A stretch of DNA of 64,000 nucleotides from an uncultured Bacilli bacterium (GCA_934130375.1 CAKOXW010000001.1:50946-114945), one strand, 5' to 3'. Positions 7,329 to 62,994 are shown, counted from the stretch's first letter. Numbers and translations are program-made. The notes: generated from the sequence alone by a model not told the origin.

Positions 7329-8249
7329 TTAATCTATAAAATTATATATTGCTTCATCATATACATGTTTGTTCTTAGGATTTAAGCTATCTATTTTATT
7401 AAATTCCTCCCTAGTCTTTAAGAAGTACTCATGAAGTAACATATCTCTATTTAAATCATTCACTGGGTCATCCCATGTAACATCAAGGCTTAGCCATTTA
7501 TTATTGATATATACTAAATTCCATATATGTGTATCATTTGATATTTTTACATTTTTTATATTTAATCTATCTAAGAATATACTCATAGTATCTGTATAAC
7601 CATTACATGTTGCTTTATTATCAAATAGTACTCCTATTGCGGTAGATGCATTACTATATGGATTATTTTCTGATTCAATATCATATTTAGTAGTATTAAT
7701 TATATAATCATGTATTGCAAGTATATTATCATAATCATTTTTTTCTTTATCTACGATAGTATCAAATATACTATCTATTTTATCATTAATATTTTTTATA
7801 TCATCTCTTTTATAAATTCTATTAATTGATAATGTAACTTTACCATAATTAGTATAAGTAGTTTTTATACTTTTAAAACTATTAAATACATTTACAAAGT
7901 TATTAATTTGAGATAATAGAGTAGAGTCATTATTAATTGCTTCAACATCTTTTAAACATTCTTTATATCCATTATCACAATAAAAAGTAAACTCTTGCAT
8001 ACCAGATGATATTATCGTGTAATATATATTAATAAGTTCATCCTTGTTATTAGCAATGAAGTCATCTGTTAGTTTTACAAAATCTACATCAACTTCTTTT
8101 GTATATTCGTTGTTATTTAGCGTTGTAGGTATTTTATTATAGTAATCTATTACGGTATCTAGTATTTCTTCTTTTTGTAAAAAACCAAGTGCGAATACAA
8201 AAAGGGTAAATACTGATAGCACTGCTACTAAAAATTTAAGAAATTTCAT
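7329..8249 (-). CDS. secreted transglutaminase-like (Cys-His-Asp) superfamily protein
   Basis: N-terminal signal peptide MKFLKFLVAVLSVFTLFVFALG. Core ATCNGYTDTMSIFLDRLNIKNVKISNDTHIWNLVYINNKWLSLDVTWDDP matches the transglutaminase-like C…H…D catalytic pattern. Confidence 0.6.
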   Translation of the reverse strand: MKFLKFLVAVLSVFTLFVFALGFLQKEEILDTVIDYYNKIPTTLNNNEYTKEVDVDFVKLTDDFIANNKDELINIYYTIISSGMQEFTFYCDNGYKECLKDVEAINNDSTLLSQINNFVNVFNSFKSIKTTYTNYGKVTLSINRIYKRDDIKNINDKIDSIFDTIVDKEKNDYDNILAIHDYIINTTKYDIESENNPYSNASTAIGVLFDNKATCNGYTDTMSIFLDRLNIKNVKISNDTHIWNLVYINNKWLSLDVTWDDPVNDLNRDMLLHEYFLKTREEFNKIDSLNPKNKHVYDEAIYNFID

Positions 8250-10242: not shown

Positions 10243-11877
10243 TTGATATTATTGAAAAAGAATAATTTTATTGATGGTGCGATTATATCTACTTTATGTT
10301 TAATAATATGTAAAATATTAGGTTTAATATATGTTATACCTTTTTATAAAATTATAGGTACACAAGGTGGTGCGTTATATAGTTATGCTTATTCTATATA
10401 TGCAGTATTTTTAAATTTATCTACAGTTGGTATTCCTTCTGCAATTGCTAAGATAATAAGTGAATATGATACATTATCTTATAAATATTTAAAAGAAGAA
10501 GCATATAAGATTGCTAATAAGATGTTAAGTGGTATAGGGTTCTTAAGTTTTTTAATTATGTTTTTTGCGTCCGATACAATTGCTAACTATATAATTGGTG
10601 GTGTAAGTGGTGGTAATAGTGTTGAAGCTGTATCAATTGCAATCAAAACTGTTTCCTTAGCATTACTTATTGTGCCTAAACTTAGTATATTAAAAGGTTA
10701 CTTCCAAGGTAATAGGTATTTAAAAGAGGGAAGTATATCTGCTATTATTGAGCAATTAGTTAGAGTTTTAGTAATAGTTATTGGTAGTTTTGTTACTGTT
10801 AAGGTATTAAAACTTAGTGTTGAGTGTGCAGTATATGTTGCTGTTTTAGGAGCATCTATAGGTGCTTTAGTGTCTTACTTTTATTTAAAGAAAAAAGCAA
10901 AACCTGTATTTATAGAAAACAAGGTTGAGACTATTAGTGAAGATGAGAAAAAGATAAGTAAGAAAGATATAATAATTAAGATTATTGTGTATGCGATACC
11001 ATTTGTAATAATGTCAATGCTTACATCTGCTTATAATGTAGTTGATACTTTTACAGTTGTTAAAACACTTACTAGACTAGGGTATTCTACAAGTGTTGCT
11101 GAAACTACTATTGGTGTTATAAGTACATGGGGTTCTAAACTTAATATGATAGTAGTATCTATTTCTATTGGTATAACATCTAGTCTAATACCTAATGTAG
11201 TTGGTAGTTATACTAAAGGTAATTATAAAGATATAAATGAAAAATTAAATATTACATTTAAAATGCTTTTATATTTAACAATACCTATGGCTTTTGGTAT
11301 GAGTATATTATCAAAACCAATATGGCATGTATTTTATGGAATAGATATTTTAAGTACAGATATTTTTAGAATATATATATTACAAGTAGTAGTATATGGT
11401 TTATTTACAACTATTACAACTATTACACAATCTATGAATCAAACAAAAATTACAATAGGTGCTTTAGTAGGATCTTTCTTACTTAAGTTAATACTAAATG
11501 TTCCAATAATGAATTTATTAAAAGTAATTAATATACCATCCTTTTATGGACCAATAGTAACAGATATGATTTCAGTTGGATTAAGTTTAATTGGTACTTT
11601 GTTAGTACTTAAGAAAAACTTTAAATTTAGTTATAGAGAGATTATATATTTCTTATCTAAAGTTTTGCTAGGACTTATTGCAATGGTAACAACATTGTTG
11701 TTATTAAAAGAAATTTATTTTGATTATTCTACTAAGTTATTATCTATTTTAACAATAGTAATTTATACTTTAGTTGGAGCATTAGTATATTTCTTCGTAA
11801 CTAGTAGATTTAAATTACTACAAAGTATTTTAGGTGATGATTATATTAAAAAAATAAAATCTAAGTTCAGGAGGTAA
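10243..11877 (+). CDS. MOP-superfamily oligosaccharide/polysaccharide flippase (Wzx/MurJ/SpoVB-like)
   Basis: 544 aa, about 14 predicted TM helices. N-terminal KILGLIYVIPFYKIIGTQGGALYSYAYSIY is typical of the polysaccharide-biosynthesis flippase family. Confidence 0.65.
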   Translation: MILLKKNNFIDGAIISTLCLIICKILGLIYVIPFYKIIGTQGGALYSYAYSIYAVFLNLSTVGIPSAIAKIISEYDTLSYKYLKEEAYKIANKMLSGIGFLSFLIMFFASDTIANYIIGGVSGGNSVEAVSIAIKTVSLALLIVPKLSILKGYFQGNRYLKEGSISAIIEQLVRVLVIVIGSFVTVKVLKLSVECAVYVAVLGASIGALVSYFYLKKKAKPVFIENKVETISEDEKKISKKDIIIKIIVYAIPFVIMSMLTSAYNVVDTFTVVKTLTRLGYSTSVAETTIGVISTWGSKLNMIVVSISIGITSSLIPNVVGSYTKGNYKDINEKLNITFKMLLYLTIPMAFGMSILSKPIWHVFYGIDILSTDIFRIYILQVVVYGLFTTITTITQSMNQTKITIGALVGSFLLKLILNVPIMNLLKVINIPSFYGPIVTDMISVGLSLIGTLLVLKKNFKFSYREIIYFLSKVLLGLIAMVTTLLLLKEIYFDYSTKLLSILTIVIYTLVGALVYFFVTSRFKLLQSILGDDYIKKIKSKFRR

Positions 11878-11878
11878 T

Positions 11879-13012
11879 ATGAACGTATTAATAATTCCTT
11901 CTTGGTATCCAGGTAAGAGTGATAGTTTATTGGGTGTTTATCATAAAGATTACGCCAAGGCATTAAGTAAATATGAAAATGTTAATATGCTTTTTATTAA
12001 TAAGTATGGGCTTTCTTATATATTTAAGTACTTGTTTATAAAGAACAAGGTTATAGTTAATGAGAGTGGTTATAAGACTTATATATATAAGATGTTAGAT
12101 TTATCTAAGATAAGTAAGAAATTAGAATTAATTAGATATAGAAAAGTATTAGATAGGGCTTATAAAGATTATATAAAGAGTGAGAATATACCAAATATAA
12201 TACATGCCCAAGTTACATTACCTGCTGGGTATGGATCTAGTTATATTGGTAAAAAATATAATATACCAGTATTAGTTACTGAGCATTCTTCTAATTATTA
12301 TCAATATTTTAATGGTGTTAATAAAGAGTTTGGAGATTATGTAATAAATAATTCTTATTATTCAACAGTAAGTAATTATATGAAAAATGAATTAAATTTA
12401 AGTAAATGTTATGTAATACCTAATATAGTAGATATAAGTGTATTTAATAAGAAAAGATATAAAAGAGGTAATACTTTAAGACTTATTTGTATAGCAGGTT
12501 TTAGAAATGGTAAGAACCTTGATGATATTATTAAAGTAATAGATAATTTAGTTAATAAAAAGAATATGGATGTTCATTTAGATATGGTTGGTGATGGTTA
12601 TTTAATGCCTTATTTAAATGAATTAGTTGATAGTTTGAACCTTAGAAAATATATCAGTTTTAAAGGCTGTATCAAAGATAAAAATGAGATAGCTAAGTTG
12701 CTTGCAAGTAGCGATATATACTTAGTTGCATCTGATATAGAGACTTTTTGTATACCAGGTGTTGAGGCTTTAGCATCAGGTACTCCAGTGGTATCTTCAA
12801 GGTGTAAGGGTACTTCTGAGTATGTTGATAGTAAGTGTGGTGAGTTCTTTAATTGTCATGATATAGATGATTTTAGTAATGCGATTATAAGGGTAAGTAA
12901 GAAGTTAGATAGTTATGATATTAATTATTTAAAGAGTGTTGCTTTTAAATATAGTAGTGATGAGGTATGTAAAAAAGCAATAAAGATATATAAAGAAATT
13001 ATAAAAAAGTAA
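11879..13012 (+). CDS. glycosyltransferase family 4 (GT-B, retaining)
   Basis: …DIYLVASDIETFCIPGVEALASGTPVVSS… matches the GT4 E-x7-E region. Start overlaps the flippase stop. Confidence 0.75.
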   Translation: MNVLIIPSWYPGKSDSLLGVYHKDYAKALSKYENVNMLFINKYGLSYIFKYLFIKNKVIVNESGYKTYIYKMLDLSKISKKLELIRYRKVLDRAYKDYIKSENIPNIIHAQVTLPAGYGSSYIGKKYNIPVLVTEHSSNYYQYFNGVNKEFGDYVINNSYYSTVSNYMKNELNLSKCYVIPNIVDISVFNKKRYKRGNTLRLICIAGFRNGKNLDDIIKVIDNLVNKKNMDVHLDMVGDGYLMPYLNELVDSLNLRKYISFKGCIKDKNEIAKLLASSDIYLVASDIETFCIPGVEALASGTPVVSSRCKGTSEYVDSKCGEFFNCHDIDDFSNAIIRVSKKLDSYDINYLKSVAFKYSSDEVCKKAIKIYKEIIKK

Positions 13013-13032
13013 TTTCTTTTTTATTTTCTTAA

Positions 13033-13056
13033 GTGTAGTCGTGGGCTTAAATGGTA
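13033..13056 (+). repeat. copy 1 of conserved 3'-flank motif (…GTGTAGTCGTGGGCTTAAATGG…)
   Basis: 21 nt after the GT4 stop. Compare with copies at 29941, 38433, 59810 and 62867. Confidence 0.7.
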
Positions 13057-13131
13057 TATATTTTGTAGTATAAACTTATAAAAAAACTCTATCGTTAAAT
13101 AGAGTTAAAATATTTTCATAATAAGAATGTA

Positions 13132-13530
13132 CTATTTACTATTTTTTTTACTTTTATTTTTTATAGTTTTACTTAAATTTAAAATTTTTTGTTTAGCAAT
13201 TTCATTTTGTGCTTTTGCTTCTTGAAATTCACATAATAAAGCCTCAATATCATCAGCATGATGTATGCCAATTTCACGCATTTCTTTTTCTTTTTTTGCA
13301 CTCATTATACCATTTTCAAAATATTCAATCAAATTTTTTGGTAGGTGAATATTTCCATTATAGTAGAAATCTTTATCTGCAGGACAGTATCCAAAATTAT
13401 ATAATTTATAACTTACATGACGATAATCACTATCCCATTTAGCCACATAAACAGTTCCTAATGAGTAACCCATTTTAATTGGCAATCCTTCATTGCAAAA
13501 AAGGATTTCTCTTTTTCCTTCGTATTTCAT
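13132..13530 (-). CDS. hypothetical protein (132 aa, Lys-rich C-terminus)
   Basis: Intact ORF, no recognised motif. Confidence 0.4.
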   Translation of the reverse strand: MKYEGKREILFCNEGLPIKMGYSLGTVYVAKWDSDYRHVSYKLYNFGYCPADKDFYYNGNIHLPKNLIEYFENGIMSAKKEKEMREIGIHHADDIEALLCEFQEAKAQNEIAKQKILNLSKTIKNKSKKNSK

Positions 13531-13678: not shown

Positions 13679-14209
13679 ATGTCTAGGTATTATAAAAAAA
13701 TATATGAAGAAAAGTATTATATAGATATTACTAAAGAGAAAGTTAAAAATAGAAATATTAATCCAAGAGAACCAAAAGAAGTTTTTGTGTACAAGCAATA
13801 TGATTTATCAAATGCAAAGTTTGATAAGAAGGGCCTTAGTAGTGATGAAAAGAGAAGTGTTGCTAGTCTAATAAAGTTTTTAGGTTGGGAAATAGATATA
13901 GTGCATAGAGTGAATATTCCTGAGGGTGTTAAAACACCTGATATCTATGCCGAAGGTGAGTACTGGGATATAAAAAATTATAAGAAATCCTTGACTTCAA
14001 AAAGTAGATTTAAAAAAATACGGCATTCTATTGAGCCAAATTTAGACCAAGCAAATAATTTTGTAATAGATTTGAATAATAAAGACTGTGATTTAACAAA
14101 TAATGAAGCAATTTTACAAATTAATAAAGTGTTTAAAGATTTTGAAAAAGCACAAAAAATAGTTTTAATTGGAAAAAGTGAACAAATATATTATTTTATA
14201 AAAAAATAA
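13679..14209 (+). CDS. hypothetical protein (176 aa)
   Basis: Intact ORF, no recognised motif. Confidence 0.4.
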   Translation: MSRYYKKIYEEKYYIDITKEKVKNRNINPREPKEVFVYKQYDLSNAKFDKKGLSSDEKRSVASLIKFLGWEIDIVHRVNIPEGVKTPDIYAEGEYWDIKNYKKSLTSKSRFKKIRHSIEPNLDQANNFVIDLNNKDCDLTNNEAILQINKVFKDFEKAQKIVLIGKSEQIYYFIKK

Positions 14210-36760: not shown

Positions 36761-36833
36761 TTTCTTTTTTTTCTATAAAAATTGACTAATATTTTAAATC
36801 ATAGTATTATATAATTAGTTTAGAAGGTGTTAT

Positions 36834-37229
36834 ATGAAAAGAAATGGTTTTACATTAGTTGAATTACTTGCAGTAATAGTTATACTTTCCTTGATACTCA
36901 CAATCGCATATCCTAAGGTATCAAGTTTGATTGAAAATGAAAAGCAAAGAACATTTAAATTATCAGTTAATTCGCTTATAAATGGCGCTAAAAATGTATG
37001 TGCTAATTACCAAAGTGAATTAAATGCTAGTGAGAAAACATATACATATATAGATAATAAATTTAAATGTGATACCGAGATTTTAGAAATGAGTAATCCT
37101 GGGAAGTTTATATCTCCTTCTACAATTTCATACAACAAGGATTGTGAAGTTAGTTTATCAGTAGAGAATGAAGAATATAAAGCCACAAAAGATTATAGTG
37201 ATAGTGATATAACTATTGTTAGAAAATAA
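36834..37229 (+). CDS. small prepilin-type (ComGC/GspG-like) pilin/pseudopilin
   Basis: MKRNG|FTLVELLAVIVILSLILTIAYP class III signal with Glu+5. 131 aa. Confidence 0.8.
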   Translation: MKRNGFTLVELLAVIVILSLILTIAYPKVSSLIENEKQRTFKLSVNSLINGAKNVCANYQSELNASEKTYTYIDNKFKCDTEILEMSNPGKFISPSTISYNKDCEVSLSVENEEYKATKDYSDSDITIVRK

Positions 37230-37238
37230 GGGGGATTT

Positions 37239-37901
37239 ATGGAAATATTAGAGAAATTAAATGTTAAGGCTAAGGATGAGAGTTTATTTTTAAGTGCTTT
37301 TACTCATAGTTCTTATTGTAATGAGCATAAGAATTGTGAAAATTATGAGAGATTAGAATTCTTAGGTGATAAAGTGCTTGATTTTATAGTAAGTGATTAT
37401 TTATATAGAAATAGACATTTATTTGAAGGTGAAATGACTAAAATAAGGGCTGCTCATGTATGTGAAGAAGCATTATCTACTTATTCTTTAGAGTGTAAAT
37501 TTAATGAATATTTAAGATTAGGTCATGGTGAAGAATTATCAAATGGTAGAAATAATAAATCAATACTTGGAGATGTATTTGAAGCATTTATTGGTGCTTT
37601 ATATATAGACCAAGGCTTAGATATTGCTAAGAAATTTATATATGATACAGTAATTAAATCTATAAATAGTAATGAGAATTTATTTAATGATTATAAATCA
37701 CAATTACAAGAATTAGTTCAAACAGATAGAAAGAGTTTAGAGTATATAGTAACTAGAGAAGATGGACCTGCTCATGATAAAGAATTTGAAGTTAATGTAG
37801 TAGTTGGTAATTTAGTATATGGAACTGGTATTGGGAAAACTAAAAAAGAAGCTGAACAAAATGCTGCTAAAGATGCACTTAGGAAGAAAGCGGATGTATA
37901 A
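37239..37901 (+). CDS. rnc: ribonuclease III
   Basis: AFTHSSY…ERLEFLGDKVLDF (RNase III signature) plus a C-terminal dsRBD. Confidence 0.9.
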   Translation: MEILEKLNVKAKDESLFLSAFTHSSYCNEHKNCENYERLEFLGDKVLDFIVSDYLYRNRHLFEGEMTKIRAAHVCEEALSTYSLECKFNEYLRLGHGEELSNGRNNKSILGDVFEAFIGALYIDQGLDIAKKFIYDTVIKSINSNENLFNDYKSQLQELVQTDRKSLEYIVTREDGPAHDKEFEVNVVVGNLVYGTGIGKTKKEAEQNAAKDALRKKADV

Positions 37902-38421
37902 GTATATAAAAAGATTATTAGATATAATTATTTCATTAATATTAATAATTATATTATCTCCTATATTACTTATTATGTTAATAATTACTAAAATAGAGTT
38001 TTCTGGCAATCCAATATATTCTCAATATAGAATAGGTAAGAATGAGAAACCATTTAAAATATATAAATTTAAAACAATGGATGATAATACTAAGAAAACA
38101 ACTAAAGTAAGTAGAGTAATAAGAACTATAGGATTAGATGAGTTATTACAATTATTCAATGTATTAAATGGTACTATGTCTATAGTTGGTCCAAGGCCAT
38201 TTATTGTTGGTGATTCTTTACCTTCTATGTATAATAAAAAAAGGCATAGTGTAAGACCTGGTATAACAGGACTTGCGCAAGTAAATGGTAGAATAACACT
38301 TACTCATAAAGAAAAATTAAAATATGATGATATATATGTAAATAATGTAAGTTTTATAATGGATTTAAAAATAGTTTTAAAAACTATAAAATATGTATTT
38401 AAAGTAATAATTGGAAAATAA
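37894..38421 (+). CDS. small monotopic phosphoglycosyl transferase (bacterial sugar transferase, PglC/WbaP C-terminal-domain type)
   Basis: MYKYIKRLLDIIISLILIIILSPILL…KPFKIYKFKTM…DELLQLFNVLNGTMSIVGPRPF. ATG overlaps the rnc stop (ATGTATAA). Confidence 0.75.
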   Translation: MYKYIKRLLDIIISLILIIILSPILLIMLIITKIEFSGNPIYSQYRIGKNEKPFKIYKFKTMDDNTKKTTKVSRVIRTIGLDELLQLFNVLNGTMSIVGPRPFIVGDSLPSMYNKKRHSVRPGITGLAQVNGRITLTHKEKLKYDDIYVNNVSFIMDLKIVLKTIKYVFKVIIGK

Positions 38422-38432
38422 TTATTACTTTT

Positions 38433-38456
38433 TTTATGTATTCTTGTGCTTAAGAA
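38433..38456 (+). repeat. copy 3 (degenerate) of conserved 3'-flank motif (TTTATGTATTCTTGTGCTTAAGAA)
   Basis: 12 nt after the phosphoglycosyl transferase stop. Confidence 0.55.
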
Positions 38457-38544
38457 AGTTTATATAATATATTTATAAATTTATATGTTAAAGAATATGC
38501 AATTTTATGATATACTTTATATATAGTAGAAAGGGTGAAATTAT

Positions 38545-39804
38545 ATGAAGAAGAAAAAAGGGTTTACATTAATAGAGTTACTTGCAGTAATAGTAATACT
38601 AGCAGTAATACTAGTTATTGCAGTACCAAGAATTAGTGATGTAATAAAAAATTCTAAAAAAGCATCGTTTGAAGCAAGTGCAAAAACAATAATATCACAA
38701 GCAGAGAAAAAGAAAATGGAGCAAGAAGTACTAGGTAATACTAATCCAATAAATTGTAGCGATATTGCTAATATTAATAATGATGATTATGAAAGTTGTG
38801 AAATAAATTTTGATGCAAATGGTAATGCTAAGATTACACTTATAGGAAAAGGAAAATTTGAAGGATTAAAAATAGTTGATGCAACAAAAGATAATTTAAG
38901 TGCAGTTGAATCAAAACTACCTGAATATGGTATAGCAACTGACTATATAAGTAACTTATATTCTTATGATGCTGAATCTAATGGACTTAAAAAAGATAAT
39001 ACTGTTGATGCTAATATAAGATATTATGGAGAGAATCCTAATAACTATGTATCCTTTAATAATGAATTATGGAGAATAATAGGTGTATTTGGTAATAATG
39101 TAAAATTAGTAAGAGGAAGATTAGGTAGTTTATCATGGGATACATCAGATTCTACTATAAATAATGGATTTGGAGTAAATGAATGGAGTGGTGCTGATTT
39201 AAAAGAGTACTTAAATACAATGTATTATGGTGGTACAAGTGTTACATGTTATAATGATGCGAATAACACAACTACAACATGTCCAACCGTATCATTAAAT
39301 GAAAATGCAAAAAGTATGATAGATAATCATACATGGGCAACTGGTGCAATAGAAGTTGAAAAAATGACAGATACAATTGCATTTTATAATGCAGAAAGAG
39401 GGACGCAAACAGGTAAAATATGTACAAGTGGAGATTATTGCAATGATACAGTTACAAGAACTACATTATGGATTGGATATATTGCTCTTCCTTATGTAAC
39501 AGACTGGGCATATGCAAGTGGTGAAGCAGAATGTGAAACTAATCTAGCAAAAGAAGATAGTTCAGGTAAGAATTTATGTAAAAGCAATAATTGGATGCCT
39601 AGTAATAGTTATTCATGGTATCTTTCACCAATTGCTAACACTAGTGGTGCTGTTGGTGCTTGGGATGTCGGCGATATAGGATTAGCTAATAGTGAAGGTG
39701 TTTTTGTATCTCGTCGCTTTTCTCCAGCTTTGTATCTAAAAAGTGGTGCAAAAATAATGAGTGGTACTGGTACTAGTAGTGATCCATATAAATTAGAAAT
39801 ATAA
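38545..39804 (+). CDS. prepilin-type N-terminal domain protein with ~380-aa C-terminal globular/adhesin-like region
   Basis: MKKKKG|FTLIELLAVIVILAVILVIAVP class III signal with Glu+5. The C-terminal part is Asn/Thr/Ser- and Cys-rich. Confidence 0.8.
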   Translation: MKKKKGFTLIELLAVIVILAVILVIAVPRISDVIKNSKKASFEASAKTIISQAEKKKMEQEVLGNTNPINCSDIANINNDDYESCEINFDANGNAKITLIGKGKFEGLKIVDATKDNLSAVESKLPEYGIATDYISNLYSYDAESNGLKKDNTVDANIRYYGENPNNYVSFNNELWRIIGVFGNNVKLVRGRLGSLSWDTSDSTINNGFGVNEWSGADLKEYLNTMYYGGTSVTCYNDANNTTTTCPTVSLNENAKSMIDNHTWATGAIEVEKMTDTIAFYNAERGTQTGKICTSGDYCNDTVTRTTLWIGYIALPYVTDWAYASGEAECETNLAKEDSSGKNLCKSNNWMPSNSYSWYLSPIANTSGAVGAWDVGDIGLANSEGVFVSRRFSPALYLKSGAKIMSGTGTSSDPYKLEI

Positions 39805-39899
39805 AATAAGAGATTACAAATTTTAATATTTGTAATTTTTTGTTATATCTTTTGTTTTTTTGACTTTTATAGTATAATTTTAATGTTAGAAGGTGACTT

Positions 39900-42839
39900 A
39901 TGTATTTAAAGGAAATTAAGATTAATGGTTTTAAGTCTTTTGCGGATAAAATTAATATTGAGTTAGGTAAGGGTATTACAGGGGTAGTCGGACCTAACGG
40001 AAGTGGCAAAAGTAACATAGTTGATGCGGTTAGATGGGTTTTAGGTGAGCAATCAGTTAAGTCTCTTCGTGGTGATGGTACGATGAGTGATGTAATATTT
40101 TCAGGTAGTAAGTCAAGAAATCCTATGTCAAATGCGTCTGTTACCCTTGTCTTTGATAATTCTGACCATAGTTTAAAATTAGATTATGATTTGGTGTCAA
40201 TTAAAAGAACTATTTATAGAAGTGGTGAAAATGAGTATTTTATTAATAATGAAAGAACTAGGTTGAAAGATATTCTTGAGTTATTAATGGATAGTGGTTC
40301 TGGTAAAGAGTCTTTTTCAATAATATCACAAGGTGATATTGCTAATATATTAAGTAATAAACCAGTTGATAGAAGAGTAATATTTGAAAGTGCGGCGGGA
40401 GTTTTAAAGTATAAAAAAAGAAAAGAAGAAGCAGTTAAGAAATTAGAAAAAACACATGATAATATTGATAGAATTGATGATATTATATCTGAACTTGAAA
40501 AACAAGTTACACCTTTAAAAGAACAAAGTGAAAAAGCAGTTATTTATAAAAACACTAAAAAAGAATTAGAAGATATTGAAATTTCTTTAATTGTGCATGA
40601 TTTAGATACTTTTAATGAAGAAAATAGTAATTCTAAATTAAGAATTGATGAATTAAATAAAGAGATAATATCTTTATCAACTGATAATTCTAAATGTGAT
40701 GCGGAAGTTTCTAGTAAGAAATTAGAATTATCTAATTTAAATGATAAACTGCATAAAAATCAAAATCTTTTACTTGAAATTACTAAGGAAGTAGAAAAGT
40801 TAAATGGTGAGAAAAATATAATATCTGAAAGAAAAAAATACGAAAGTGAAGATATAAAACTTCATTCTAATATAACTTTACTTAAGGAAGAAGAAGCAAA
40901 GTATACTAGTAGTAAGTTCCTTCTTAACGATGAGATTGATAGTATTAAGAATACTTTAAGTGAGAAGGCTAAGGAAAGTAGTAATTTAGAGAATATATTG
41001 AGTAATTTAGAGATTGATAAAAATAAGTTATATTCTAGTTATAATAGTAAGATGAAAGTTGTTAATGACAATGAGTATAGGATAGATGTATTAAATAGGA
41101 CTTTAAATAATAATGATAATTATTCGTATGCGATTAAGAGTGTACTTAATAATACAAGGTTATCTGGTATTTGTGATACGATTGGTAATATTATTAAAGC
41201 TAAGGATGGGTATGAAAATGCGATTGATACTGCAATCGGTTATAGTACTTCATATGTAGTTTGTGAAGATGAAATATCAGCGAAAAATGCGATTGAGTAT
41301 TTAAAGTTTAATAAACTTGGTAGAGTGACTTTTTTTCCATTAAATATAATTGAGGGTAAGTATATAGATAGTAGTATATACTCTAAGGTTGAGAATTGTA
41401 ATGGATTTATTAATATCGCATCTAATTTAGTTAGTTATAATGATAAATATAAAAATATTATATTAAATTGTCTTGGTAATATTATTGTTGTTGACAATAT
41501 TGATAATGCTAATAATATTGCTAGAATGATTAATTATAGGTATAGAATAGTTACATTGGATGGCGAAATAATACATGTTGGTGGTAGTTTAACAGGTGGT
41601 ATGCAGAAGAAAAGTACTAGTATTATTTTAGATAAGATGGAACTTGATAAACTTGTTATGGAGAATACTAAATTAAAGAGTTACTTAAGTGATATACAAA
41701 ATGATATTAATAATAACAAGGATGTAATTGATAGAAATACTATTAAGTTAGATACTATAAAAAGAAGTATTATTTATAATACTGAGATATTAAATGTTAA
41801 GTCTAAGGAGTTAGATGAATTAAATGAAAAATTAGATAGTGTTAAAAATAATATTAGTAGTATATCTAATATTATAGGTGGTTCTTTTAGTAGTGAAGAA
41901 GAGAGTATTATTAATAAATATTATGCTTCTGTTGGTAAGAAAGAATTGGTAGTAAGTGAGATTAATAAATTAAGTGAAAGTATTAAAGTATTAAGTGATG
42001 AGATTAATATTTTAGAGCATGATTATAAAGTCTCAAATAGTGAATATAATAAGAAATCTAATGAATTAAAAGAGCTTGAAATAAAAGTTGGTAAGATAGA
42101 TGTTAAACTAGATAATTTATTAAATGCTTTAACTGAGTATAATTTAACTTATGAGAAAGCAAAGAAGAATTATATACTTGTTATGGAAAGTGATATTGCA
42201 AGGTCTAAAGTATCTGAATACAAGAAAATTATTAATGATTTGGGTATTGTTAATTTAGGTGCGATAGAAGAATATGAAAGAGTTAAAACTAGATATGAAT
42301 TTTTAAATAATCAGAAAAATGATTTATTTAAAGCAGAGAATACTTTACTTGAAATTATAAAAGAAATGGATAGTGTAATGGAAGTAGAGTTTAATGAAAC
42401 ATTTAAACTTATTAAAGATGAATTTAAGTTAGTATTTAGAGATTTATTTAATGGTGGTGATGCTGATTTAAGACTTACTAATCCAGATAATATATTAGAA
42501 ACAGGTATTGATATTGTTGCACTTCCTCCTGGTAAGAAGTTAACTTCAATTTCATTATTATCAGGTGGTGAGAAAGCCTTGACTGCAATTGCGCTTCTTT
42601 TTGCAATTTTAAAAGTTAAGCCAGTACCATTTTGTATACTAGATGAAGTTGAGGCGCCACTTGATGAAGCTAATGTTGATATATTTGGTAAATTTGTATC
42701 TAAAATGTCAGAAAATACACAGTTTATTATAATTACACATAAGAAAAAAACTATGGAATACGCTAATGTATTGTATGGAATTACAATGCAAGAATCTGGT
42801 GTTTCTAAGTTGGTAAGTGTAAGGTTGGAGGAATTATGA
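39900..42839 (+). CDS. smc: chromosome partition protein Smc
   Basis: N-terminal Walker A GPNGSGKSNIVDAVRWVLGEQS, long coiled coils, a hinge region, C-terminal LSGGEKALTAIALLFAI…ILDEVEAPLD. Confidence 0.9.
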   Translation: MYLKEIKINGFKSFADKINIELGKGITGVVGPNGSGKSNIVDAVRWVLGEQSVKSLRGDGTMSDVIFSGSKSRNPMSNASVTLVFDNSDHSLKLDYDLVSIKRTIYRSGENEYFINNERTRLKDILELLMDSGSGKESFSIISQGDIANILSNKPVDRRVIFESAAGVLKYKKRKEEAVKKLEKTHDNIDRIDDIISELEKQVTPLKEQSEKAVIYKNTKKELEDIEISLIVHDLDTFNEENSNSKLRIDELNKEIISLSTDNSKCDAEVSSKKLELSNLNDKLHKNQNLLLEITKEVEKLNGEKNIISERKKYESEDIKLHSNITLLKEEEAKYTSSKFLLNDEIDSIKNTLSEKAKESSNLENILSNLEIDKNKLYSSYNSKMKVVNDNEYRIDVLNRTLNNNDNYSYAIKSVLNNTRLSGICDTIGNIIKAKDGYENAIDTAIGYSTSYVVCEDEISAKNAIEYLKFNKLGRVTFFPLNIIEGKYIDSSIYSKVENCNGFINIASNLVSYNDKYKNIILNCLGNIIVVDNIDNANNIARMINYRYRIVTLDGEIIHVGGSLTGGMQKKSTSIILDKMELDKLVMENTKLKSYLSDIQNDINNNKDVIDRNTIKLDTIKRSIIYNTEILNVKSKELDELNEKLDSVKNNISSISNIIGGSFSSEEESIINKYYASVGKKELVVSEINKLSESIKVLSDEINILEHDYKVSNSEYNKKSNELKELEIKVGKIDVKLDNLLNALTEYNLTYEKAKKNYILVMESDIARSKVSEYKKIINDLGIVNLGAIEEYERVKTRYEFLNNQKNDLFKAENTLLEIIKEMDSVMEVEFNETFKLIKDEFKLVFRDLFNGGDADLRLTNPDNILETGIDIVALPPGKKLTSISLLSGGEKALTAIALLFAILKVKPVPFCILDEVEAPLDEANVDIFGKFVSKMSENTQFIIITHKKKTMEYANVLYGITMQESGVSKLVSVRLEEL

Positions 42840-44397: not shown

Positions 44398-46677
44398 ATG
44401 AAAGAAGCATTTTGGGGACTACTTATAATTATCTTAGGAATATTTGGCATAGTATGTATAAATTTATTTCAGAATGTTACTGTAGATAATGATAAAGTGT
44501 ATTATGTTTTAAAAGAATCGACTGAAGCATCTGCCCATGATTCAATTGATTTAAGTTACTATAGACTAGGTGGCTCACTAAGAATAGTTGAAGATAAGTT
44601 TGTTGAGAATCTTGCAAGAAGATTTTCACAAAGTATTACTGCTGGTAGATATACAATATCAGTACAAAATATAAATGAGCTACCACCACTTATGTCAGTA
44701 AAAATAAGAAGTGGAGTATCATCAATAAAGGGAGATGAATTTAACTTAACAAATAGAGTTGATGCGATAATTGAAACTAAATATAAGTTAAGTGAAGTTC
44801 TTGATTTCTTAGGAATTACTGAAGAAGAATGGAATGACATAAACAATAAGAATAAAGATACAATCAAAAATGGAGTATGTGGAGTAACATTTATAAATGA
44901 TGGAGATTTAGATTGTATTACAGGAGATTTAAGATTTGATGGGCTTGGTGATACCGATTTAAAAAATGCAGTATGTATGGGTCAACAAAAATCAAATGTA
45001 GAAGCAACTGCTAAGTATAGTGTTTGTGAGTGTGGAAAATGGGTTTCAAAAGAAGAAACACTAGTTGCTAATCCGGTACTTGTTAACAATGATGGAAATA
45101 GAGAATATGTTTATACATATAGATTTGTAAAAACTGGTGAAATAAGAAATATTGATGAAACAATAATAAAAAGAGTTAGAGCAGATGTATGTACAACGGG
45201 TGTAGAAGTATGGGTTCCAAAAGATTTAAGAGAAAAGGAACCAAGTAGCGATAATTCTAAGTATGTAAAGTGTGATCCGGCAACAGGTATAAGAATACCT
45301 GAAGATGTTGAGATAGTACTTCATCCAAATTATATACCATTAAATGCAACAAATAGAGAAATAAAATGGACAGCTGGTAATGCAAGTTTGTTATCATTTG
45401 GAAGTTTTAGTGTTACACAGCCAACAAAATTAACTGGTTTTTCAAGAGCATTAATAAAAGGTAAATTAAGTGGTACAGAGGAAGAACAAACAACAATGAC
45501 TGCAACAACTACATTAGACCAAAGTGCAGTATGTCCAATAAGAGTATGGGATGGTAATGTTGATAGTGTAAGTTGTGAAAATATAAATACTAAGGTAGGT
45601 TATACGACAGCATTTAAAGGTTCATACGAGCCATATAATGCAACTAAAACCAAATTAAAATGGTCAATTGATGATACATCACTTGTTGAACTAGATGAAT
45701 TAACAGGTAAAGCAAAAGCTTTAAAAGTTGGAACTGCAACAATAACAGTTACTGCTGAAAATGGTAAAACAGCAACATGTACATTAAAAGTAGATAAATA
45801 TCAAGAACCTAGATCAGATGGTGGATATTCAGGAGCCGGAGGTGGAGGTGGTGCTGGTATATGGATTGTAACAGATAAAGATGGAAATAGAACAACATAT
45901 AGCAATATGTATAATGCTATAAAGGCTGCAGGTACTAAGGTTGGAGAAGTTTCTATATCGGTTTCGAATGGATCTGGAGAATATGAATGGGCAAAAGGTG
46001 TGACCGAATCTCATTTAAAAAGTGCATCAACTGAACTTGTTAAGACGGCGGGTGGAACAATATCAATAAAAAGCGATGATAAAAATGGTATAATATTTAA
46101 AATAAAGGATGAAAATGGCAGATTACTTGAAACAAATCAAAATCCACCACCACCACCATATCAAGAACCTTGTTACTGTTGTGGTGGATGCGGAGGTGGT
46201 TATGTGCCTGGTTCTCCAGAACAAGGTGCTGCTGCAAATAATAGTATAGTTGCATGTTTTGAAAAAGGTACTGAAGTATTGACTAATAATGGTTATAAAG
46301 ATATAAGTAAATTAAAAGTTGGGGAAAAGGTTTTATCATATAATGAAAATACAAAGAAAAACGAATATGCTAAAATCATTAAAGTATATAAACACGAAAA
46401 AGTAAGTGATACATTATTCTCCTTAACAATAAATGGAACTATTGTCAAAGCATCAAGTGAACATCCATTTTACATAAAGACAGTAAATGGAATTACTCAA
46501 ATTAAAGCAGAAAATTTAAAAATTGGTGATATAGTAATAACTTCTTTTGGAAATTATTATCCGATAACTTTCATTTCTTCTATGAATATAGTTGAAGATT
46601 TATATAATATTGAAGTTGAAAATAATCACAATTATTATGTTACTAGAGAAAATGTTCTAGTACATAATAAACCATAG
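44398..46677 (+). CDS. N-terminally membrane-anchored Big_2 surface protein ending in a mini-intein-like Hint/BIL (bacterial intein-like, type A) domain
   Basis: TM LLIIILGIFGIVCINLF. Two Big_2-like Ig domains. Gly-rich SGAGGGGGAGIW and PPPPPYQEPCYCCGGCGGG. The final ~140 aa contain intein blocks A (A|CFEKGTEVLT), B (SSEHPF), F (LYNIEVENNHNYYV) and G (ENVLVHN), followed only by KP*. Confidence 0.75.
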   Translation: MKEAFWGLLIIILGIFGIVCINLFQNVTVDNDKVYYVLKESTEASAHDSIDLSYYRLGGSLRIVEDKFVENLARRFSQSITAGRYTISVQNINELPPLMSVKIRSGVSSIKGDEFNLTNRVDAIIETKYKLSEVLDFLGITEEEWNDINNKNKDTIKNGVCGVTFINDGDLDCITGDLRFDGLGDTDLKNAVCMGQQKSNVEATAKYSVCECGKWVSKEETLVANPVLVNNDGNREYVYTYRFVKTGEIRNIDETIIKRVRADVCTTGVEVWVPKDLREKEPSSDNSKYVKCDPATGIRIPEDVEIVLHPNYIPLNATNREIKWTAGNASLLSFGSFSVTQPTKLTGFSRALIKGKLSGTEEEQTTMTATTTLDQSAVCPIRVWDGNVDSVSCENINTKVGYTTAFKGSYEPYNATKTKLKWSIDDTSLVELDELTGKAKALKVGTATITVTAENGKTATCTLKVDKYQEPRSDGGYSGAGGGGGAGIWIVTDKDGNRTTYSNMYNAIKAAGTKVGEVSISVSNGSGEYEWAKGVTESHLKSASTELVKTAGGTISIKSDDKNGIIFKIKDENGRLLETNQNPPPPPYQEPCYCCGGCGGGYVPGSPEQGAAANNSIVACFEKGTEVLTNNGYKDISKLKVGEKVLSYNENTKKNEYAKIIKVYKHEKVSDTLFSLTINGTIVKASSEHPFYIKTVNGITQIKAENLKIGDIVITSFGNYYPITFISSMNIVEDLYNIEVENNHNYYVTRENVLVHNKP

Positions 46678-46688
46678 GAGGAATAACT

Positions 46689-47624
46689 GTGAAAAATAAG
46701 AATATTTTAATATTTAGTATAGTTTTATTAATAATAGTATTACTAGTTACATTATATTCTGTTTATAGAAAGAAAACCGAGAAAAGTGATAGCTATGGTT
46801 ATCTTCACAATCTTGGCGAAAAAGTTACTATCGATACAAATATAAATTATATGGATGAATACAAAGAGAATATTATTGATAATGAATTAAAAGAAGTAGA
46901 CTATGAATTGTTTTTTGATGATACTACTATATATGGTAAGGTTTTTATAAATGAAAGTTATGAGCTATATATAACTAATGGTTTTACTAAAGAAAATTAT
47001 AAAATAAATAACGTTAAATTTAAAACTTTATATAAAAGTCTTGTGTCATATGCAAAATCCTTAATTGTTTATGCAATATCACAAGATGGTGATTTGTACA
47101 AAATAGTGCTCAATGAAAATAATATAGAACATGTTAAATATTATAAAATTGAAACAGCTAGTAAAGTTTTGAAATTTACTAATCTACAAATTTATAGTCA
47201 TGCATGTACTGAACCATCTTTGGTAGTTTTATGCGAAGATAATAAAATGTATGATGTTAAAAGTGGACTTCTTTATTCAACAACTTATAAGAAATTTTTT
47301 GATAAATATTTGATTTTTGATGATAAGTCATTAACTGATTCAAAAGGAAGAAAAATTATTAATTTCTTAAATGAACAAGTAAAGATAAGAGGCTTTATAG
47401 AAACAAATAATGATGAATTTGAGAAAAGTGATAAAGTATTGTTCTTTACTACAACTGATGAATTACTTTACTTATATGATGAAAATAATACGTATATATA
47501 TGTTAGAGCAGTAAAGTCAGTTGAAAATGTTGATGTTTTCAAAGCCAAAATGGATTTTTATAAAGGTAAATCGTGGGAATTTGAAGGTCATTATACATAT
47601 TACGTAAATAGTGAGTGGAATTAA
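46689..47624 (+). CDS. hypothetical N-terminally membrane-anchored protein (311 aa)
   Basis: GGAGG RBS. TM ILIFSIVLLIIVLLVTLYSVY. No motif. Confidence 0.45.
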   Translation: MKNKNILIFSIVLLIIVLLVTLYSVYRKKTEKSDSYGYLHNLGEKVTIDTNINYMDEYKENIIDNELKEVDYELFFDDTTIYGKVFINESYELYITNGFTKENYKINNVKFKTLYKSLVSYAKSLIVYAISQDGDLYKIVLNENNIEHVKYYKIETASKVLKFTNLQIYSHACTEPSLVVLCEDNKMYDVKSGLLYSTTYKKFFDKYLIFDDKSLTDSKGRKIINFLNEQVKIRGFIETNNDEFEKSDKVLFFTTTDELLYLYDENNTYIYVRAVKSVENVDVFKAKMDFYKGKSWEFEGHYTYYVNSEWN

Positions 47625-48174
47625 TAATAAAAAGGTGAAGTTGACTAACTTTACCTTTTTATTTGGCAAAATAGCAAAAAAAGTATATGGAGAAAATTCG
47701 TATACTCATTCTAAGGTTGAACTTGAAGCAAAATTAAAAAGTCTTGATATTAAGTATCCTGAAGAAACTATTACTATGAATTGTGTTGGTACTTTAGTAG
47801 CAAGAGACAAGGATGGGAATTATAAGATTATTCAAACTCTTGAATATATAGATGATGATGCAAATGTAATGCGTATTTATGATATATTAGAAGAATTGTT
47901 ATGTGGAATTAATATTGATGATATTGATTTTAGTCAAAATGATTTAGGCAAATATTATAAAATGGATTCAAGTTTATTTACTCCAAAATGTGAATATTTA
48001 GAAGAAAATCCAATATATGAGTACGGAAGTGCGCCATATGCTGTATTATTTATACAAGAACATTTTGATGATATAATTGCAAAATATGCTGAAGCTGGCA
48101 AAGTATATAGTTATCAAGTAACTGATCAATATAAATATTTATATACTTACGATGTATACTATGATGACATTTAA
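47611..48174 (+). CDS. hypothetical acidic cytoplasmic protein (start uncertain)
   Basis: Overlaps the upstream stop. Possible alternative GTG/TTG starts at 47635/47641. Confidence 0.4.
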   Translation: MSGINNKKVKLTNFTFLFGKIAKKVYGENSYTHSKVELEAKLKSLDIKYPEETITMNCVGTLVARDKDGNYKIIQTLEYIDDDANVMRIYDILEELLCGINIDDIDFSQNDLGKYYKMDSSLFTPKCEYLEENPIYEYGSAPYAVLFIQEHFDDIIAKYAEAGKVYSYQVTDQYKYLYTYDVYYDDI

Positions 48175-59805: not shown

Positions 59806-59809
59806 CTTA

Positions 59810-59845
59810 TTTTATGTGTAGTCGTGGGCTTAAGTAGTTTATATT
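59810..59845 (+). repeat. copy 4 of conserved 3'-flank motif (TTTTATGTGTAGTCGTGGGCTTAAGTAGTTTATATT)
   Basis: Begins 5 nt after the recX stop. Hairpin terminator TAGTTTACAtgTGTAAACTA+T7 at 59858-59884. Confidence 0.75.
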
Positions 59846-60165
59846 TAGGTAATGAATAGTTTACATGTGTAAACTATTTTTTTGTACAAGTATTATTAAT
59901 GTTTAAAAATGGAAAAGACCATTTGGTCTTATTTTGTTGCTATAGTTTTATGTGATGATGTTTACTGCAGTATTTTTTGAATAATTGTGTAGTATTTGTA
60001 TGGTTTTTAATGATATTTTGATATAATACTTATTATTTTTTAAAAATTAGAAAATATTATTGCAGTATTTATTTTAGTTGCTGCAGTATTTATTATAGTT
60101 TTTTGTAGTATTTAAATTGTTTTTTCATACAAATAAATGAGCATGAAAAAAAAGACCATTTGGCC

Positions 60166-62166: not shown

Positions 62167-62856
62167 ATGAGTTTTAATTTATATAATGGAGTTTATAATT
62201 TTACTACTAGTTGTAGTGATGGCTCTTTAAGTAAGAAAGAATTACTTGGTTTATTAAAGTGTGAAAAAGAATATTTAGAAATGAAATATGGTATTGATAC
62301 TAGAAAAATGATTATTCCTAATCAAGATTTAAATAATGAAGGTATTTTACTTGATATTACTAATTTAGCAGAAGAAGCTTTATTTGATGATAGTATTAAT
62401 TTACTTGATTATAATATTCCATGTGATGCGGTTATGATAAGTAGGTTTGCACCAAGTATCGCACTTGCGTATCCAACAAGTGATAATCCAGTTATAACTA
62501 TTGAATCTGATTATGCAATCGCACTTGCAAGTATGAATATTGATAAATTGAATGATAATTTACTTGAAGATATTGTAAAGAAATTTTTAAGAGTATGTAA
62601 TTTATCTAATGATAAAATTAAAATTCATGTTGGACCTTGTGCTTCTTATGAAAGTATTAATATAAAAGATATGATTAGTGGTAGTTTAGATAGAATTGGT
62701 ATTAATAATGTTAAATATGACAATAGAGATACAGTTACTAATGATGATTTGTTTTCAGAAATTGGTAATAAGAAAGGTAATCATTTAACTGGTATATATT
62801 ATAAACCTGATGAGAAAACTTTGAAACTACTTCGTCATCACTCAAAATGGTATTAA
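62167..62856 (+). CDS. YfiH/PgeF-like (DUF152, purine-nucleoside phosphorylase/laccase-domain) protein
   Basis: AGAGGTG RBS. NIPCDAVMISRFAPSIALAY and KIHVGPCASYESI resemble the YfiH …ADCxP… and …IGPCI…YEV blocks. Weak. Confidence 0.4.
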   Translation: MSFNLYNGVYNFTTSCSDGSLSKKELLGLLKCEKEYLEMKYGIDTRKMIIPNQDLNNEGILLDITNLAEEALFDDSINLLDYNIPCDAVMISRFAPSIALAYPTSDNPVITIESDYAIALASMNIDKLNDNLLEDIVKKFLRVCNLSNDKIKIHVGPCASYESINIKDMISGSLDRIGINNVKYDNRDTVTNDDLFSEIGNKKGNHLTGIYYKPDEKTLKLLRHHSKWY

Positions 62857-62866
62857 TTTTATGTGA

Positions 62867-62900
62867 ATTCGTGGGCTTAAGTAATTTATATTGCAATAAT
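62867..62900 (+). repeat. copy 5 of conserved 3'-flank motif (TTTTATGTGAATTCGTGGGCTTAAGTAATTTATATT)
   Basis: Begins 11 nt after the stop. Hairpin terminator AAAGACTTTACatatGTAGTAAAGTCTTT at ~62904-62933. Confidence 0.75.
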
Positions 62901-62994
62901 TAAAGACTTTACATATGTAGTAAAGTCTTTATATTATATATAAAAATTAGTTGATTTTCACCAGAAATTATCATATTTTGATAAAAAGTGGTGA

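Follow-up and report, generated by a model that had tools for sequence, protein, structure and literature searches.

Two prepilin-headed genes at an rnc–phosphoglycosyl transferase–smc cluster of an uncultured gut Bacillota member

The stretch of DNA analysed here, called the window in the following, comprises 64,000 nucleotides (64 kb) of an uncultured Bacilli bacterium (GCA_934130375.1, CAKOXW010000001.1:50946-114945). Between positions 36834 and 42839 it contains the genes of ribonuclease III (rnc), of a small PglC-type phosphoglycosyl transferase (PGT) and of Smc, together with two genes whose products begin like type IV prepilins, namely a 131-residue pilin (pilin131) encoded upstream of rnc and a 419-residue protein encoded upstream of smc. 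We consider it likely that rnc, the PGT gene and smc represent an ancestral housekeeping cluster into which the two prepilin-headed genes, unrelated members of a scattered set of such genes, were inserted.

The rnc–PGT–smc cluster and the gap before smc

An earlier note on this DNA had described an rnc-smc linkage invaded by a PGT and two prepilin-type genes, and all genes it had named were recovered in place by reading the open reading frames (ORFs) and by Pfam and NCBIfam matches. The genes of the cluster lie on the plus strand. The pilin131 gene (36834-37229) encodes a pilin module only and is followed by rnc (37239-37901, 220 residues; TIGR02191 with 253 bits against a cut-off of 166, Pfam Ribonucleas_3_3 and dsrm), by the PGT gene (37894-38421, 175 residues; PF02397, positions 1-179 of 179, E 4e-54), by the gene of the 419-residue protein (38545-39804) and by smc (39900-42839, 979 residues; SMC_N 244.9 bits, SMC_hinge 96 bits). 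The longest ORF covering the PGT begins at 37819; the ATG at 37894 yields the 175-residue protein matching PF02397 from end to end, and the upstream start in the ORF list is not the real one. With the ATG at 37894 the PGT gene starts within the rnc stop, as had been noted before, with an overlap of 8 nt (ATGTATAA). The pilin131 gene indeed sits just upstream of rnc, but the gap to the rnc ATG amounts to 9 nt and not to 10 nt. The gaps on both sides of the 419-residue gene are 123 nt (towards the PGT gene) and 95 nt (towards smc).

The evidence for an old cluster stems from the contexts of PGT orthologues, which were sampled at falling PGT identity (91, 71-72, 68, 62 and 47%). At 68% (locus L112) the order is rnc-PGT-smc, and at 62% (L113) it is rnc-PGT-smc-methyltransferase-rluA, so that the genes after smc agree with those of the window. 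Both loci keep the 8-nt overlap of rnc and the PGT gene and carry a small hairpin with a T-run after the latter; the gap from the PGT gene to smc is just 73-79 nt, and in neither of them does a pilin gene adjoin rnc, the PGT gene or smc. The claim that the rnc-smc neighbourhood had been invaded is therefore borne out by these two relatives. At 47% (L013) a PGT fusion protein is encoded directly upstream of rnc-smc. The two loci at 71-72% (L111 and L009, CAG:1193-like) retain rnc-PGT and continue with different genes: a DUF5411-Big_2-HINT gene and two further genes precede smc in L111, and a convergent prepilin-leucine-rich-repeat (LRR) gene follows the PGT gene in L009. At 91% (L118 and L119, the sister lineage) the order is leuS-pilin131-rnc-PGT-smc, with a gene for a 596-residue LRR protein with a degenerate pilin-like head between the PGT gene and smc. 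An overlapping or abutting rnc-PGT junction is kept in all six of these loci (L009, L111, L112, L113, L118 and L119). Since relatives carry the trio without pilin genes, we regard rnc-PGT-smc as ancestral in the clade and the PGT as an old resident of it.

The boundaries of the gap before smc could be traced as well. The 31 nt preceding smc (39865-39895, TTTATAGTATAATTTTAATGTTAGAAGGTG), which hold the -10 region of its promoter and the ribosome-binding site (RBS), are conserved in L112 and L113 with 94-97% identity, and there the block directly follows the PGT terminator. In the comparison with relatives, the gap between PGT terminator and smc promoter is a slot for variable surface-protein cargo. 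No species but that of the window was found to carry the 419-residue gene there. The 5' flank of this gene (38474-38544, promoter and RBS region) travels with the family and shares 75-77% identity with the sequences ahead of other copies (L043, L047 and L051). Its 3' side is closed by a terminator-like hairpin with a U-run (39805-39844; 17-bp stem, -14.2 kcal/mol, z = -6.1), which none of 200 shuffled sequences folded as well. With a 5' region typical of its family at one end and a strong terminator at the other, the 419-residue gene can be understood as a self-contained single-gene unit.

Some observations were made on the other occupants of the slot. The LRR cargo of L119 (5741-7531, 596 residues) is of the BspA type and keeps the pilin-like hydrophobic helix (LIAVIVVLSTILIIAVPKISNSINNNKKA) with the G/FTLIE motif lost, and the copy in L118 is split into ORFs of 99 and 449 residues. 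A DUF5411-Big_2-pretoxin-HINT protein of 759 residues is also encoded in the window itself (44398-46677, plus strand); it ends at HINT with no toxin domain after it and is followed by two unannotated genes (46689-47624 and 47611-48174, plus strand). Since its homologue in L111 (5592-10451), likewise accompanied by two unannotated genes, fills the PGT-smc slot, the DUF5411-HINT gene evidently moves between sites.

At the head of the cluster, pilin131 is preceded by 52 nt which are 87% conserved in L118 and L119, and the order pilin131-rnc-PGT is the same in this sister lineage. Upstream of rnc in L009, L111, L112 and L113 no pilin131 was found. From this distribution we conclude that pilin131 joined the operon head before the window species and its sister lineage separated. 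The protein starts with the leader MKRNG, the cleavage site and then FTLVELLAVIVIL, and it exceeds the PF07963 cut-off (33.7 versus 21.2 bits) as well as that of TIGR02532. The label ComGC-like, given to it in the earlier note, could not be kept: the equivalog cut-offs were all missed by far (ComGC 22.9 of 75, ComGD 34.5 of 70 and GspG 27.9 of 88.85 bits), and the matches to ComGC and GspG were confined to the N-terminal helix. With these scores the protein is not assignable to ComGC, ComGD or GspG as an orthologue. A weak promoter-like site (TTGACT, 17 nt, TATTAT; 36782-36810, plus strand; 10 of 12 positions in a consensus scan) may head a putative pilin131-rnc-PGT operon. Such sites did not outnumber those of shuffled AT-rich DNA. 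As the promoter matches do not rise above shuffled sequence, the operon structure was derived from gene spacing and hairpins, by which pilin131 and the PGT are probably co-transcribed.

The PGT aligns over its full length with the Campylobacter PglC structures 8e37 and 8g1n (E 1e-42). It retains LDEL with the Asp-Glu dyad and GPRP, and it carries LSP at residues 22-24 in the N-terminal re-entrant-helix region. A full Bac_transf domain, the Asp-Glu dyad, the PRP motif and the Ser-Pro re-entrant helix are thus all present, as in small monotopic PGTs. Further orthologues from related low-GC metagenome-assembled genomes (L010, L014, L015, L016/L114 and L017) are single genes behind trmK-like, gyrB, rlmI-like and ispH genes, and a classical sugar-biosynthesis cluster surrounds an orthologue only in the deep-sea Mycoplasmatota strain zrk6. 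Such a scattered, housekeeping-linked placement is unusual for a glycan pathway. We infer that the PGT initiates a general envelope glycopolymer and not a pilin-specific sugar.

The host is an uncultured low-GC member of the Bacillota. The G+C content is ~26% across the window, and the plus strand carries almost all genes. Proteins exactly matching those of the window occur on 41-79 contigs, the longest of 607 kb, from human-gut metagenomes (Hadza, Nepali and others). Near-identical PGTs are deposited at NCBI under metagenome-assembled genomes named 'Tenericutes/Mycoplasmatota bacterium', and the closest named genome is Clostridium sp. CAG:1193 with a PGT identity of 72%. Related loci furthermore contain sporulation genes (SpoIIGA, sigma factors, likely sigma-E/G, CotE and SpoVS).

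The 419-residue protein and its family

The presence of a prepilin-headed protein with a Cys-rich C-terminal part in front of smc, proposed before, was corroborated (PF07963, 34.2 bits). Its N-terminus consists of the leader MKKKKG followed by FTLIELLAVIVIL, with F7 and E11 in the mature part. Both this protein and pilin131 pass the cut-offs of PF07963 and TIGR02532 and thereby carry a class III signal peptide. In 45 homologues F7, T8, L9 and E11 were invariant, and the residue before F+1 was Gly or Ala in all homologues read. In the AlphaFold2 model the pilin module (residues 1-125, 38545-38919) forms a helix from residue 9 to 63 and strands between 82 and 113 at a predicted local distance difference test score (pLDDT) of ~80, so that a pilin fold, a long helix on a beta-sheet, is predicted for the N-terminal module.

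For the C-terminal part (residues 126-419, 38920-39804) the outcome depended on the alignment. A full-length AlphaFold2 run with the 45 close homologues left this domain at a pLDDT below 50, and with a diverse alignment of 103 sequences the 294 C-terminal residues folded at a pLDDT of 97.3 and a predicted template-modelling score of 0.94. By this model the passenger is predicted to be an enlarged C-type-lectin-like (CLec) domain (CTLD) of ~290 residues, and the 419-residue protein as a whole a bimodular type IV pilin with an enlarged CLec passenger. Comparison of family profiles with solved structures matched pilin N-terminal helices only. Membership in DUF6273 (PF19789) was rejected, since the window protein gave no match and the relationship is distant; weak matches were obtained for 22 of 45 close and 9 of 80 diverse homologues (best E 1e-7).

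The family is large. A protein search with the 419-residue protein returned at least 6567 homologues at E ≤ 1e-3, and the best 120 of them are all 60-100% identical and 415-450 residues long. Residues 126-419, compared with 1.84 billion cluster representatives, hit 3,113 clusters at E ≤ 1e-3 with many architectures; these more than 3,000 lectin-module clusters are clusters at 50% identity. Among 80 sampled diverse proteins with the CTLD module 19 carry the pilin head. Its genes come in several copies and are dispersed between housekeeping genes; for example, two copies each are present in L006/L007 and L032 (MerR…lgt and whiA…parA) and in L031 (around rpsD-ezrA-rnj). A metagenome scan added 78 loci carrying the family. 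For none of the 97 family copies at ~90 other loci was a PGT, rnc or smc gene found within ~6 kb. Near family loci other prepilin-headed genes with different passengers (LRR_5, Gp10_C) were found. A phage origin of the family was dismissed after a search of 2.9 million viral contigs had given just 3 weak matches.

A six-frame motif scan unveiled a third prepilin-headed surface protein of 926 residues in the window (~718-3498, plus strand), which contains Flg_new (Listeria-Bacteroides) repeats and two Gly_rich_2 domains. Its gene holds a 744-nt internal tandem duplication, with 2314-2613 and 3058-3357 being 93% identical. Because of this third gene, prepilin heads are taken as a general anchor of surface proteins in this genome and not as a speciality of the rnc locus.

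The 419-residue gene itself is a mosaic of two paralogues. Nucleotides 1-360 are 86-96% identical, per interval of 90 nt, to the gene of P0003 (ezrA-rnj) and 47-69% to that of P0005, and the whole pilin-module DNA (38545-38919) is 92% identical to the P0003 gene. For nucleotides 541-1260 the relation is reversed, with 89-100% per interval to the P0005 gene (whiA-parA; 94.5% over an alignment of 817 nt) and 53-93% to the P0003 gene. Judged from this pattern, the copy is explained by module exchange and not by retro-mutagenesis.

In several relatives the family is linked to a diversity-generating retroelement (DGR). In L008 the gene of a homologue (P0022, 63% identical) comes first, and downstream of it lie in turn a small ORF, an intergenic repeat, a further ORF, an Avd-family gene and a reverse transcriptase gene. 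When the 3' end of the homologue was compared with the intergenic copy of the 104-nt repeat, 19 of 19 mismatches fell on adenines of the intergenic copy, and because mismatches occur only at template adenines the pair was assigned as template repeat (TR) and variable region (VR) of a DGR. Mismatches at TR adenines accounted for 16 of 18 in L109, 18 of 21 in L073 and 15 of 27 in L046, and in these three loci, too, a DGR cassette, whole or truncated by the contig, follows the family members. All DGR-linked copies whose 5' end lies on the contig carry the prepilin head. In an alignment of 45 homologues, residues 356-393 had a column entropy of 1.89 bits versus 0.76 for the rest of the CTLD and held 16 of the 25 most variable positions. 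In the structural model this segment falls on the C-terminal beta-strands (fragment residues 232-273), as in other DGR targets with the CLec fold. In some relatives the last ~35-40 residues of the lectin fold are thus a genuine DGR VR.

The cassette of L008 (9371-11738), like those of L109, L046 and L073, has conserved ORFs of 102 and 117 residues on both sides of the TR, followed by Avd and the reverse transcriptase. In L008 the reverse transcriptase ORF comprises 273 residues and is followed by an ORF of 80 residues, and homologues are ~350-365 residues long; the L008 gene may be split or truncated. L038 (7550-7651) and L057 (6271-6372) preserve no more of the reverse transcriptase gene than its final 34 codons (97% identical), ~280 nt downstream of the family gene. 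These remnants look like deletion scars of a DGR cassette lost from a former target.

The copy in the window presents a different picture. Neither a repeat of the 3' end of the 419-residue gene, with the VR-equivalent segment (residues 356-393, 39610-39723), nor a reverse transcriptase nor Avd was found in the 64 kb of the window. The 419-residue protein is identical on 41 contigs from different people, and P0002, P0005 and P0006 share its VR-equivalent segment unchanged although their pilin modules and loci are different ones. Each TR recovered disagrees with 39610-39723 at many sites other than adenines, and the GC-rich 3' end of the TRs has no counterpart there. At the AAY positions of known TRs the window codons include TTA and GAA, which cannot have come from adenine mutagenesis because AAY cannot yield them. 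Of the features of a DGR variable protein the window copy consequently has the CLec fold, and a cognate TR within the 64 kb, a nearby reverse transcriptase with Avd, and hypervariability between samples are lacking. Since TR and reverse transcriptase are missing nearby, the protein is invariant between samples and the gene is a mosaic, we read this copy as static and shuffled by recombination.

Alternative readings and the proposed mechanism

Some points weigh against the reading of an old cluster with later insertions of displayed, lectin-bearing pilins. The window and ~1.1 Mb of related loci showed neither a prepilin peptidase nor an assembly ATPase nor a platform protein, apart from one ATPase in L098. 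The CLec fold is assigned from a predicted model, and the search for TR, reverse transcriptase and Avd covered the 64 kb of the window, which leaves room for a DGR acting in trans. Finally, a prepilin-type gene on either strand follows the PGT gene in 4 of ~10 clade contexts (the window, L119 with its degenerate head, L009 and L016), which exceeds the ~5-8% expected from the density of such genes (rough p ~0.01-0.03, the cases being non-independent).

The last point bears on the proposal of the earlier note that the PGT and the pilin genes form an O-glycosylation module like those of Neisseria and Pseudomonas. In such a module the PGT would make a lipid-linked sugar, which after flipping would be attached to the adjacent pilins by an O-oligosaccharyltransferase from another part of the genome. 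The intact, PglC-type nature of the PGT, its position between two prepilin genes, its probable co-transcription with pilin131, the 4 of ~10 contexts and the presence of a Wzx/SpoVB-like flippase and a glycosyltransferase of family GT4 in the window are all consistent with it. The module is not supported by the wider comparison, however, as L112 and L113 have rnc-PGT-smc with no adjoining pilin gene, the slot of L111 holds non-pilin cargo and none of the 97 family copies elsewhere is near a PGT. Moreover, the orthologous PGTs of other relatives follow gyrB, trmK-like, rlmI-like or ispH genes, and one lies in an ordinary sugar-nucleotide cluster. The reading of all ORFs and the Pfam search yielded no candidate oligosaccharyltransferase of the PglL, PilO or Wzy_C type and no large polytopic Wzy_C-like ORF in the window, and a conserved glycan-pilin linkage was not found either. 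The gene for a MOP-family flippase-like protein and the directly following GT4 gene (10243-13012), suggested as suppliers of further steps, are both present, but they are generic, lie 25 kb off and show no specific link to the pilins; the former matches PF01943 and reaches 131 bits with its best NCBIfam model, SpoVB, against a cut-off of 372. Being a SpoVB/MurJ/Wzx-like MOP protein and a generic GT4 at this distance, the two were rejected as parts of a pilin pathway. Because rnc-PGT-smc is free of pilins at 62-68% identity and the sister lineage carries other cargo, we conclude that PGT and pilin genes arrived independently, and the repeated adjacency is attributed to the insertion slot at the operon end, of which it would be a by-product. 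Altogether we see no evidence for a Gram-positive pilin glycosylation system at this locus and regard the module as quite improbable.

Two further alternatives were weighed. The prepilin-like N-termini might be nothing but membrane anchors, signal or anchor sequences, cleaved or uncleaved, of proteins that are never polymerised. No pilus machinery in any sequence examined argues for this, as do heads fused to unrelated passengers (CTLD, LRR, Flg_new/glycine-rich, Gp10_C), the slot protein of the sister lineage with its hydrophobic helix kept and GFTLIE gone, and the pilin head on just 19 of 80 diverse proteins with the CTLD module. Reading all ORFs of the window turned up no ATPase of type IV pili or of type II secretion, which confirms that no assembly ATPase is present and that the pilins would depend on machinery encoded elsewhere. 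A tblastn search with hand-written consensus cores of pilus ATPases and peptidases, run against the window and the ~1.1 Mb of related loci, gave as its one match a Tad/CpaF-like ATPase in L098. There CpaB-like and CpaF/TadA-like ATPase genes (4507-6467) are located ~3.5 kb from a family member, and they are of the Tad type and not of the type IVa/Com type. Since no assembly genes were seen, filament display is inferred solely from the strictly conserved G/FTLxE head. On the other side, F+1, T+2, L+3 and E+5 are invariant and preceded by Gly or Ala, none of which a plain transmembrane anchor needs, the complete alpha-beta pilin fold is predicted for the pilin module, and polymerising bimodular pilins exist in Streptococcus sanguinis. 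We therefore hold anchors alone to be unlikely. It is more improbable by far that a retroelement elsewhere in the genome actively diversifies the 419-residue protein, with one TR serving several scattered paralogues. In favour of such an arrangement one can cite the genuine DGR targets among close relatives in the family, the many copies of the family and the multi-target DGRs of other bacteria; opposed to it are the identical protein on 41 contigs of different samples, the unchanged VR-equivalent segment of P0002, P0005 and P0006, the TTA and GAA codons at AAY positions, and the non-adenine differences from every recovered TR together with the missing GC-rich 3' end.

In the clade as compared here, a small PglC-type PGT gene is translationally coupled to rnc, and smc comes after it. 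The pilin131 gene was the earlier insertion, at the head of the rnc operon, and is shared with the sister lineage; the slot contains, depending on the lineage, nothing, the DUF5411-HINT module, the LRR protein or, in the window species, the 419-residue gene. A prepilin peptidase whose gene lies beyond the window would cut both pilin-headed proteins behind the leader Gly, and they would then be displayed on, or anchored via, a type IV filament or pseudopilus, where the lectin-like domain may act as a ligand-binding adhesin. The PGT would prime an undecaprenyl-phosphate-linked sugar for a general envelope glycopolymer.

A wider interpretation is put forward tentatively, and we think it somewhat less probable than its opposite: uncultured gut Bacillota of this kind may possess modular type IV pilins as a repertoire spread over the whole genome. 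Their lectin tips would be diversified by shuffling of pilin and lectin modules among dispersed paralogues, as in the mosaic gene of the window, and, in some copies, by DGR mutagenesis of the C-terminal lectin strands, which would parallel, on Gram-positive type IV pili, what DGRs do at the type V pilus tips in Bacteroides. Static copies like that of the window could then be expressed alleles or recombination donors, and operon-end slots such as that between the PGT gene and smc would be landing sites.

Further features of the window and comparison with known systems

Besides the genes discussed above, some features of the window deserve mention. A stand-alone protein of 176 residues with a CdiA_C toxin-like domain (PF18451, E 1e-9) is encoded at 13679-14209 (plus strand), and a divergent ORF of 132 residues beside it (13132-13530, minus strand) could be its immunity partner. 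An intergenic element of ~48 nt with the core GTAGTCGTGGGCTTAA lies just past stop codons at 13026-13073, 59809-59856 and 62856-62903 (plus strand); these three copies compare with 0.02 expected by chance, and Rfam gave no match to the element. The Rfam scan of the window returned one tRNA only. A transglutaminase-core protein with a signal-peptide-like hydrophobic N-terminus is encoded at 7329-8249 (minus strand); NF045980 relates it to lipoproteins of the Mycoplasma 'MAG6410 family' (E 6e-17, with a score well short of the family's cut-off).

As far as the locus is concerned, the outcome is deflationary: the PGT belongs to the rnc-smc operon as a housekeeping gene, and the pilin genes came in later. 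The locus leads, on the other hand, to a family of great size, whose members combine a prepilin head with an enlarged CLec domain and occur in abundant uncultured human-gut bacteria. If displayed on type IV filaments, its members would be candidate hypervariable adhesins shaping host or glycan binding, and such a role, if true, would matter for taxa typical of non-industrialised guts.

In Bacillus subtilis the corresponding operon is rnc-smc-ftsY. It shares with the clade described here rnc and smc in the same orientation within one cluster. In contrast, a PGT is fixed between rnc and smc in this clade and ftsY is not adjacent, and the window species has in addition a pilin gene before rnc and a modular pilin gene before smc. 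With Campylobacter PglC the window PGT shares the size class, the Ser-Pro re-entrant-helix region, the Asp-Glu dyad and GPRP. It differs by ~10 residues fewer in the loop after KFKTM, which we take to be the site of the specificity motif in diNAcBac-specific enzymes; with these loop residues absent, its substrate probably differs from that of PglC. The gene contexts differ as well, being a pgl or other glycan cluster for the Campylobacter PglC type and the rnc-smc operon here. The Pgl system of Neisseria and the PilO/TfpO and PglL systems of Pseudomonas and Acinetobacter have in common with the window a PGT gene beside pilin genes, whereas the window has no oligosaccharyltransferase and no adjacent sugar-modifying genes, and the adjacency is not conserved.

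The closest parallel in architecture is offered by PilB and PilC of S. sanguinis, which are modular type IV pilins, the module of PilC being lectin-like. Common to these and the 419-residue family are the class III signal peptide, a small pilin module and a C-terminal module, ligand-binding in PilB and PilC. Differences are found in the module, which is an enlarged C-type-lectin-like one in the 419-residue family, and in the genes, which are single-gene units among housekeeping genes with no pil locus; incorporation of the family into a pilus is only predicted.

Type IV pilins have been reviewed in general (PMC4471445). DGR variable proteins with a CLec fold are known from Treponema denticola (TvpA, 2y3c), from the Bordetella phage (Mtd) and from Bacteroides (type V pilus tips, DUF1566, 4eps; bioRxiv 10.1101/2024.11.15.621889). 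Compared with these, the 419-residue family has a type IV prepilin head as N-terminal anchor, and the window copy shows neither a DGR nor variation. The pilus-related DGR targets known so far are the type V tips of Bacteroides. One survey lists a 'GspG-type pilin' among rare VR-holding domains (PMC11661182), pilins are not mentioned in the main text of Roux et al. 2021, and the literature searched contained nothing joining 'diversity-generating retroelements' with 'prepilin'. A prepilin head combined with a DGR-diversifiable enlarged CLec domain in a scattered gut-Bacillota family thus does not appear in the literature searched.

A further known system close to the lectin domain is the N-terminal domain of the IgA peptidase (IgAse) of Thomasclavelia ramosa (PDB 9qa6; PMC12237041), with a sequence identity of only 16%. 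In IgAse the domain precedes the metallopeptidase in a protein with signal peptide and sortase anchor, and it is dispensable for IgA cleavage (PMC12237041). It gives no clue to the ligand; conversely, the adhesin role, if true, would provide a testable functional context for this orphan lectin-like domain of the IgA protease. The parts described here are all of known kinds, namely type IV pilins, modular pilins, CLec-fold DGR targets and PglC-type PGTs, and the window locus is an ordinary static example of the family.

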